From the IMG/VR virus record IMGVR_UViG_2728369593_000020: DNA of 27,648 nt. One strand, given 5' to 3'. The stretch comes from a virus. Taxonomy: Duplodnaviria; Heunggongvirae; Uroviricota; Caudoviricetes. Positions 26,201 to 27,648 of this stretch are shown piece after piece. Numbering within the stretch: the first letter of the stretch is position 1; each line of letters opens with the position of its first letter. Position numbers: made by a program.

Positions 26201-27648
26201 TGGGGATAAGGATAAAAACTTCCTTGATATGGCGTACACCGGTCTGCGCATCGTAGGAGCCAAACAGGGCCGCCACCAGGTCAAACACCCACGGTGCACA
26301 GGACTCCCCGAACGTAGGGCTACCAGGTGCATCCACAATCCGCAGTTGTTTAAAAATCGCCAGGGCATGTGCGGCCTCGTCCGGATAAATCGGATCCGGA
26401 ATAATCGACAGCCCCTTTTTCAGGCGCTCTGCCCAGTCCGGGCAGGCTGTGCTCCATACAGGTATCATCCGTTGCCCTCATTATCGTTATTCACCACCAG
26501 TCGGGGTGGCGGTGGCACCGCAAAACGGTTAGCCGCTTTTTTCGCGGCATCACCTTTTGCCGATTTTTTCCCGGTATCCCCTTTTTTATGGTGCGTGAAC
26601 TGCGCCAGACGCCAGGCCGCATCCAGTGCCAGTTTCGGATCAATGCAGAGGTTTTCCACCAGGATCCGCCCCATGGCTTTCACCGGATCGGGAAGACCAT
26701 CCTCCATATATTCAATACCAGGAGACATCACCGCGGACGGTGGCATCTCCGGATTGTTTTCGTCCGGCTGTGGTATTGCAGCCGCCTCACGGCGACGGGG
26801 TTTATCCTCCTGCTCTGATTTTTTCTGCCGGTAAACAGGAACCTCATCCACCTCCACCGTCTCGCATTGTTTACGGGCTATAAACGCAAGCACCTCCGGA
26901 TCTTTTGCCAGCTGCGAGCCTTTAACCCTGGCGGTCTTCGCCGAATAACCGGCGGCAATGGCTGACGCTGTTTTGTTTTTCCCGGACATGAGCGCCAGCG
27001 CAAATTTTCGTTTTTGCGTTGTCAGCACAGCCTCCTCCCGGGTCCAGAACGCACTCAGCCGGGTATGGTTCAGCCCATTTTTCCCGGCGTCTCATGCCGC
27101 AAATGTTAACTGCTGCCCGGTTAACATTTGCTGAAAAAGCCTGTTAACATTTTTTCCGCACAACAAACTGAATAATAAAGATAAAAACCGCAAAAATGCC
27201 CGGGCAGCCAGTTAACATGTTAACTGCCCTGAAACGGGAATTTTTTCTCTGCGTGAGAGCTGTCTCTTGATCAGATCTCCTGATCAAGAGACTTCATCAC
27301 CAGGTAACCCTCAACCATATCCTGAAGTCTGAACCAGCCATCCCACATGACTACCCAACCGGGGCGACCGGTGCGTTTGCTGTCATGCCATCGCCCCAGT
27401 TTCGCCAGTTTCAGACAGGCCCATTTCAGTGTCGGCATCTGTGACGGAAGCGGTTTTCCTTCCAGCTTAACCCACAGCAGTTTCCACTCTGTCGGCGTCA
27501 GTATTTTCTCACAGCTGTCATTTTGTGTTTCTTCACTGATACCGCCCTGCCGCAGGCCCAGCACCCGCACCGCGATAAACGCCTTGATAACCACCATGCG
27601 CTCGAGGTTATCCCGGGTCTGCATTCGCAGCGATTCCACACATGTACC

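Follow-up and report, generated by a model that had tools for sequence, protein, structure and literature searches.

Very probably, ISEc13 has inserted on the cos site of a lambdoid prophage with an HK97-style packaging module, where it is likely to block packaging of the prophage's own DNA. The window, i.e. the whole 27,648-nucleotide stretch that was analysed (IMG/VR virus record IMGVR_UViG_2728369593_000020, Caudoviricetes), ends where draft contig AKYH01000013.1 (GCA_001605745.1) ends, 389 bp into the element. The contig stops inside the IS, so the other IS end, the 9 bp target duplication and the HNH-side half of cos are out of view; the truncation is due to the draft assembly and not to the element itself. 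The insertion is an ordinary, strain-specific event, and only its location is new.

Identity of the element

The following features were assigned to the element.

27260–27648, − strand: inside-end portion of ISEc13 (transposase 3′ part), the first 389 bp of the 1550 bp element
27260–27278, + strand: terminal 19 bp of ISEc13, which we take to be identical to the IS50/Tn5 inside end
27271–27648, − strand: last 125 codons of the ISEc13 transposase gene (residues 333–457), from Pfam and NCBIfam matches
27262–27292, no strand: 13 bp perfect inverted repeat, GTCTCTTGATCAG / CTGATCAAGAGAC, with a 5 nt loop, from a repeat search

The original prediction placed an IS50-like element at 27254–27648. Its terminal 19-mer was confirmed, and its start was moved six bases to 27260, as 27254–27259 (TGAGAG) is phage DNA that is present in uninterrupted prophages. 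From 27260 to 27648 the window was identical (389/389 bp, no mismatches) to the complete ISEc13 copy of Escherichia coli E2348/69 (locus L001, 2506–2894). Since these 389 bp are those of known ISEc13 copies, the element is, judged by its sequence, a known, catalogued and very common IS and not a new IS50 relative. The RefSeq name annotated under the matches is 'IS4-like element ISEc13 family transposase' (e.g. WP_000244358.1). Of 5,426 complete E. coli genomes searched by megablast with the region, 2,993 gave matches, many of them with ISEc13 copies that are at least 99% identical, and 31 places on the chromosome of the EPEC strain E2348/69 match the ISEc13 end seen in the window.

The 19-mer reported at the element's end, CTGTCTCTTGATCAGATCT, was found at 27260–27278 (+ strand) as the sole exact match in the window, and no match is expected in shuffled sequences even with up to three mismatches. 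We take it to be the Tn5/IS50 inside end at 19 of 19 positions; indirect support for this identity comes from the published Tn5 PnptII primer (nptII promoter fragment), which contains CTGTCTCTTGATCAGATCTTG. Two GATC (Dam) sites occupy positions 10–13 and 15–18 of the 19-mer. The transposase TGA stop codon (27271–27273) lies within the terminal repeat, the protein ending ...VMKSLDQEI.

The window fragment of the transposase matches Pfam Dimer_Tnp_Tn5 (27.4 bits, just over the cut-off) and NCBIfam NF033590 (IS4 family transposase) at profile positions 291–405, the C-terminal third. The full ISEc13 protein passes the cut-offs of Pfam Tnp_DNA_bind and DDE_Tnp_1 and scores 514 bits with NF033590; its Dimer_Tnp_Tn5 score is 24.1 bits, below the 26.7-bit cut-off. 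Over its full length it aligns with the sequences of Tn5 transposase structures (E 6e-84) and keeps the catalytic DDE and YREK residues. These alignments and profile matches assign ISEc13 to the IS4 family, IS50/Tn5 type. The transposase had been described as clearly diverged from Tn5 at its C-terminus and the element as a relative of IS50 rather than IS50 itself, and both statements hold: identity to Tn5 transposase is 43% in the window part and 42% over the full ISEc13 protein, far from the near-identity looked for in IS50 itself. A look-up with the 125-residue partial transposase matched only contig AKYH01000013.1 itself.

The features of a whole element were taken from complete ISEc13 copies elsewhere, in which both terminal repeats and a complete transposase are present. 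The complete E2348/69 copy (L001 2506–4055) is 1550 bp long, encodes a 457-residue transposase and is flanked on both sides by the 9 bp direct repeat CGGAGAGAG. The terminal inverted repeats begin CTGTCTCT and resemble the Tn5 inside and outside ends. The outside end in other copies (L002 12725–12743, L001 4037–4055) is CTGTCTCTTATACACAAAT, with 17 of 19 positions matching the Tn5 outside end and 17 of 19 the engineered mosaic end. For all of these comparisons the Tn5 end sequences are those that we presume to be correct. Like the engineered, hyperactive mosaic end of Tn5, CTGTCTCTTATACACAAAT carries a T at its fourth position, and the two agree throughout bases 1–16.

The inverted repeat at 27262–27292 pairs the terminal repeat with the final codons of the transposase gene, one arm being an inverted copy of end positions 3–15. 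The corresponding RNA hairpin is part of a fold of −26.2 kcal/mol (z −4.9) and is not followed by a U tract. This IS-end hairpin was considered as an intrinsic terminator and ruled out, as it has no U tract and no terminator-like site was scored there.

Insertion point and the cos site

The phage features adjoining the element are as follows.

27251–27259, no strand: predicted 9 bp target GCGTGAGAG (CTCTCACGC on the phage strand), of which only the left flank is visible
27257–27258, no strand: predicted cos cut, given for the coding strand of the phage, from alignment to the Lys8385Vzw record ends
27029–27257, − strand: terS-proximal half of cos, 229 bp from the cut to the terS start, near-identical to Lys8385Vzw bases 1–229
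26465–27028, − strand: terS, small terminase, 187 residues (Pfam Terminase_2; annotated terminase small subunit in E2348/69)
24807–26468, − strand: terL, large terminase, 553 residues (Pfam TerL_ATPase and TerL_nuclease; RefSeq annotation)

The junction was established by comparison with uninterrupted prophages, as the original prediction had proposed. Window positions 26300–27259 are 100% identical to the E2348/69 prophage and are found in about 1,250 complete genomes. Where the window passes into ISEc13, uninterrupted prophages read ...GCGTGAGAG/GGGGCGCGG and continue GGGGCGCGGTGTCC..., the HNH gene ending 59 bp on. In these relatives the spacer between the HNH gene (Pfam HNH) and terS is 290 bp long, and beyond the HNH gene come the lysis genes and a Q-type antiterminator gene on the same strand as terS. 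The junction thus falls between the HNH endonuclease gene and terS, 59 bp past the former and 231 bp upstream of the start of the latter, which is the first gene downstream of the insertion. The relatives also bear out the predicted setting of the IS, upstream of terS, downstream of the lysis genes and inside the late transcription unit.

A duplication of GCGTGAGAG is expected at the outside end of this copy, because ISEc13 makes a 9 bp duplication (the L001 copy, CGGAGAGAG). After a simple insertion the outside end would read ...ATTTGTGTATAAGAGACAG, followed by GCGTGAGAG and GGGGCGCGGTGTCC. We infer this second end and the duplication from the complete copies.

The phage–IS junction was absent from the 5,426 complete E. 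coli genomes, in which no place covered at least 80% of the query, and equally from GTDB species representatives, JGI metagenome contigs, IMG/VR and GenBank phages. A search for contigs encoding the terS protein, which is listed in 13,036 blocks, returned only uninterrupted prophages.

A target-site preference of ISEc13 was considered and dropped: a third copy does not conform, and the extended BLAST matches were picked by the similarity of their flanks. The two 9-mers CGGAGAGAG (L001 2497–2505) and GCGTGAGAG (27251–27259) share G at position 3 and GAGAG beside the inside end. Several top BLAST matches run 1–11 nt into the flank, which could reflect either a target preference or a selection effect.

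In HK97-type phages the HNH–terS spacer holds cos. The position of cos in this spacer was taken from phage Lys8385Vzw, the TerS of which is 95% identical to that of the window and which was induced from an O103:H11 STEC. Its ends are reported from PhageTerm as cos with 10 nt 3′ cohesive ends and CGCCCCCCCT at the genome end (PMC7946995). The Lys8385Vzw genome starts CTCACGCAGAG and ends ...CGCCCCCCCT (at greater length, CTCACGCAGAGAAAAAATTCCCG to ...GGACACCGCCCCCCCT), and both ends fall within the HNH–terS interval. The cut position given here is therefore that of a related phage and a software call, transferred by alignment. Window position 27257 corresponds to virion base 1 of Lys8385Vzw, and 27258–27259 are the last 2 nt of the 10 nt 3′ cohesive end. 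On the phage strand the uninterrupted prophage reads ...CGCGCCCCCT/CTCACGCAGAG and the window reads IS...GAGACAG-CTCTCACGCAGAG. Two nucleotides separate the IS junction from the cos cut, the junction being the left one of the pair on this strand, and the predicted target CTCTCACGC straddles the cut. A first estimate of cos from HK97 spacing (the G-run plus 42 nt) was replaced by this PhageTerm-based position; the two are at most 4 nt apart.

In the terS-proximal half of cos lie an A-tract and, at 27104–27224, clustered TGTTAAC palindromes; of the eight TGTTAAC copies that the 27.6 kb window contains, six fall within these 121 bp. The palindromes are GCAAATGTTAAC/GTTAACATTTGC and CAGTTAACA/TGTTAACTG. 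By its arrangement the array looks like a candidate small-terminase binding region, cosB-like, for a Terminase_2-type TerS. HK97 has a 10 nt 3′ overhang and its TerS binds at +15 to +29 from the cut; the small terminase positions the large terminase for cleavage, and the HNH protein stimulates cos cleavage. The Pfam family to which HK97 gp1 presumably belongs differs from Terminase_2, so that the HK97 binding-site geometry may not transfer to this prophage.

Expected consequences and alternative explanations

ISEc13 would move like IS50, as its transposase is homologous to that of Tn5: the transposase would bind both 19 bp ends, cut the element out and join it to a target opened by a 9 bp staggered cut. 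The inside ends of the two elements, with their two GATC sites, are identical, so that the control of end usage by Dam methylation may perhaps be common to them. After insertion the terS side would retain two of the ten cohesive-end bases, the A-tract and the presumed TerS-binding repeats; the other eight bases and the second-strand nick site would now lie 1.55 kb away, beyond the IS. With 1.55 kb of IS between most of the cut region and the presumed binding array, terminase would be expected to fail to recognize or cut the split cos, and both the initiation and the termination cleavage would be prevented. The late genes would still be transcribed through the IS. Loss of packaging is likely on this model, and we infer it from the position of the junction relative to cos in relatives.

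The original prediction had suggested another possible effect of the insertion, that of a polar block ending Q-dependent late transcription upstream of terS and uncoupling the structural genes from the late promoter. The IS does lie within the late transcription unit (Q, lysis genes, HNH gene and terS are on one strand in relatives), it adds 1.55 kb and it carries a stable hairpin at its end. Against this, the transposase gene and the late operon share one orientation, and in a simple scan of the whole IS all terminator-like sites were antisense, with none on the late strand; nor is there one at the junction, where the hairpin has no U tract. In lambdoid phages, RNA polymerase modified by Q passes both intrinsic and Rho-dependent terminators along the late operon, and IS insertions lose their polarity under λ antitermination, so that Q antitermination should override termination here. 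Polarity is thus an unlikely effect of this copy, and the splitting of cos is better supported.

The prophage of E2348/69, nearly identical to this one, has an ISEc13 copy of its own (L002 12725 onward; NZ_CP059840.2 from about 2718069) between the antiterminator region and the first late/lysis genes. It is opposite in orientation to the window copy, and the terminator-like sites of the IS there face the late transcript. It is this copy and not that of the window which fits the idea of late-promoter uncoupling.

An IS end may also mark the breakpoint of a rearrangement in which the HNH/lysis/Q side was deleted, inverted or moved away from the packaging and structural genes. The contig stops within an IS that is highly repeated in related strains (the 31 matching places on the E2348/69 chromosome), and the second ISEc13 of the E2348/69 prophage, 5.8 kb away and inverted, would be a substrate for inversion. 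Positive evidence for such an event is nevertheless nil: contig breaks in a multicopy IS are normal for short-read assemblers, and the junction is at the exact terminal IS base, as primary transposition gives. A rearrangement is likewise unlikely. An assembly artefact, with the IS wrongly appended to the contig end and no insertion here, would suit the draft state of the assembly, the single-base indels in genes close by and a junction seen in no other collection searched, but is hardly credible, as a false join is unlikely to fall at the exact first base of the 19 bp repeat with 389 error-free bases after it.

With simple insertion into cos retained as the preferred reading, the choice of site may be considered. 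That the hit was no coincidence, IS50-type transposases preferring the bent, protein-bound or nicked cos DNA of HK97-type lambdoid prophages and ISEc13 acting as a recurrent cos inactivator, is a very improbable reading of one insertion with a junction in no other genome searched. If true, such a preference would leave prophages unable to spread, with late genes, lysis genes and virulence cargo still expressed.

Other features of the prophage were recorded. A portal-region gene (20007–22594) is a single 861-residue ORF in E2348/69 and is in three frames in the window, with single-base insertions at 20783 and 21510 (T5 versus T4). A frameshifted portal fragment, used as a unique marker, led to contig AKYH01000013.1, which is 93,717 bp long. 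The C-terminal half of this long ORF contains about 3.3 tandem copies of a 162 bp (54-codon) unit at 20473–21067 that are 94% alike. The tape-measure gene is in three pieces (540, 251 and 325 residues) compared with 1080 residues elsewhere, and a 1 nt deletion (G3 versus G4) lies near it at 17190. These frame breaks are either real pseudogenes or sequencing errors of the draft assembly; with portal and tape-measure frames broken, the prophage may be decaying and defective already. In related prophages the match overlies an annotated nleA, and the prophage of the window appears to carry type III effector cargo.

The prophage, most likely with a split cos, is probably unable to package and transfer itself. 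It would be a small example of an IS-immobilized prophage in a pathogenic E. coli lineage with a very active ISEc13, and a natural test case of whether an HK97-type cos works only with its halves side by side. Beyond annotation its importance is small: a catalogued IS is named and the stop of the contig, and with it of the window, is explained.

Comparison with known systems

The window copy agrees with reference copies of ISEc13 in 389/389 bp, in the terminal repeat, in the transposase C-terminus and in the stop codon inside the repeat; there is no sequence difference, and the location alone is new. ISEc13 in turn resembles IS50/Tn5 in its inside end (19/19, with the stop codon and two GATC sites within it), its outside end (17/19 to the Tn5 outside end), a transposase of the same length class that retains the DDE and YREK residues and has a dimerization domain of the Tn5 type, and a 9 bp target duplication. 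It differs in that its transposase is 42% identical, the element is 1550 bp long, the fourth base of the outside end is T and an extra 13 bp inverted copy of the end is present just inside the inside end.

Insertions of IS elements are known from Stx and other lambdoid prophages of pathogenic E. coli. In an Stx2 prophage, two IS3-family transposase genes, of ISEc25 and IS1203, lie mid-prophage, and the induced phage genome lacks them (PMC7946995). The present insertion into a prophage is likewise strain-specific; in those cases the target is a gene or another intergenic region, whereas here it is the cos cleavage site itself.

The packaging module has the HK97 order of HNH, cos, terS, terL, capsid with a fused prohead-protease domain, and portal. 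For its close relative Lys8385Vzw a 10 nt 3′ cohesive end is reported, as in HK97, and both modules have an A/T tract just downstream of the cut. In contrast, the cos sequence of the prophage is unrelated to that of HK97, the window TerS matches Pfam Terminase_2, and the TGTTAAC palindrome array is peculiar to the prophage in this comparison, being without an HK97 counterpart.
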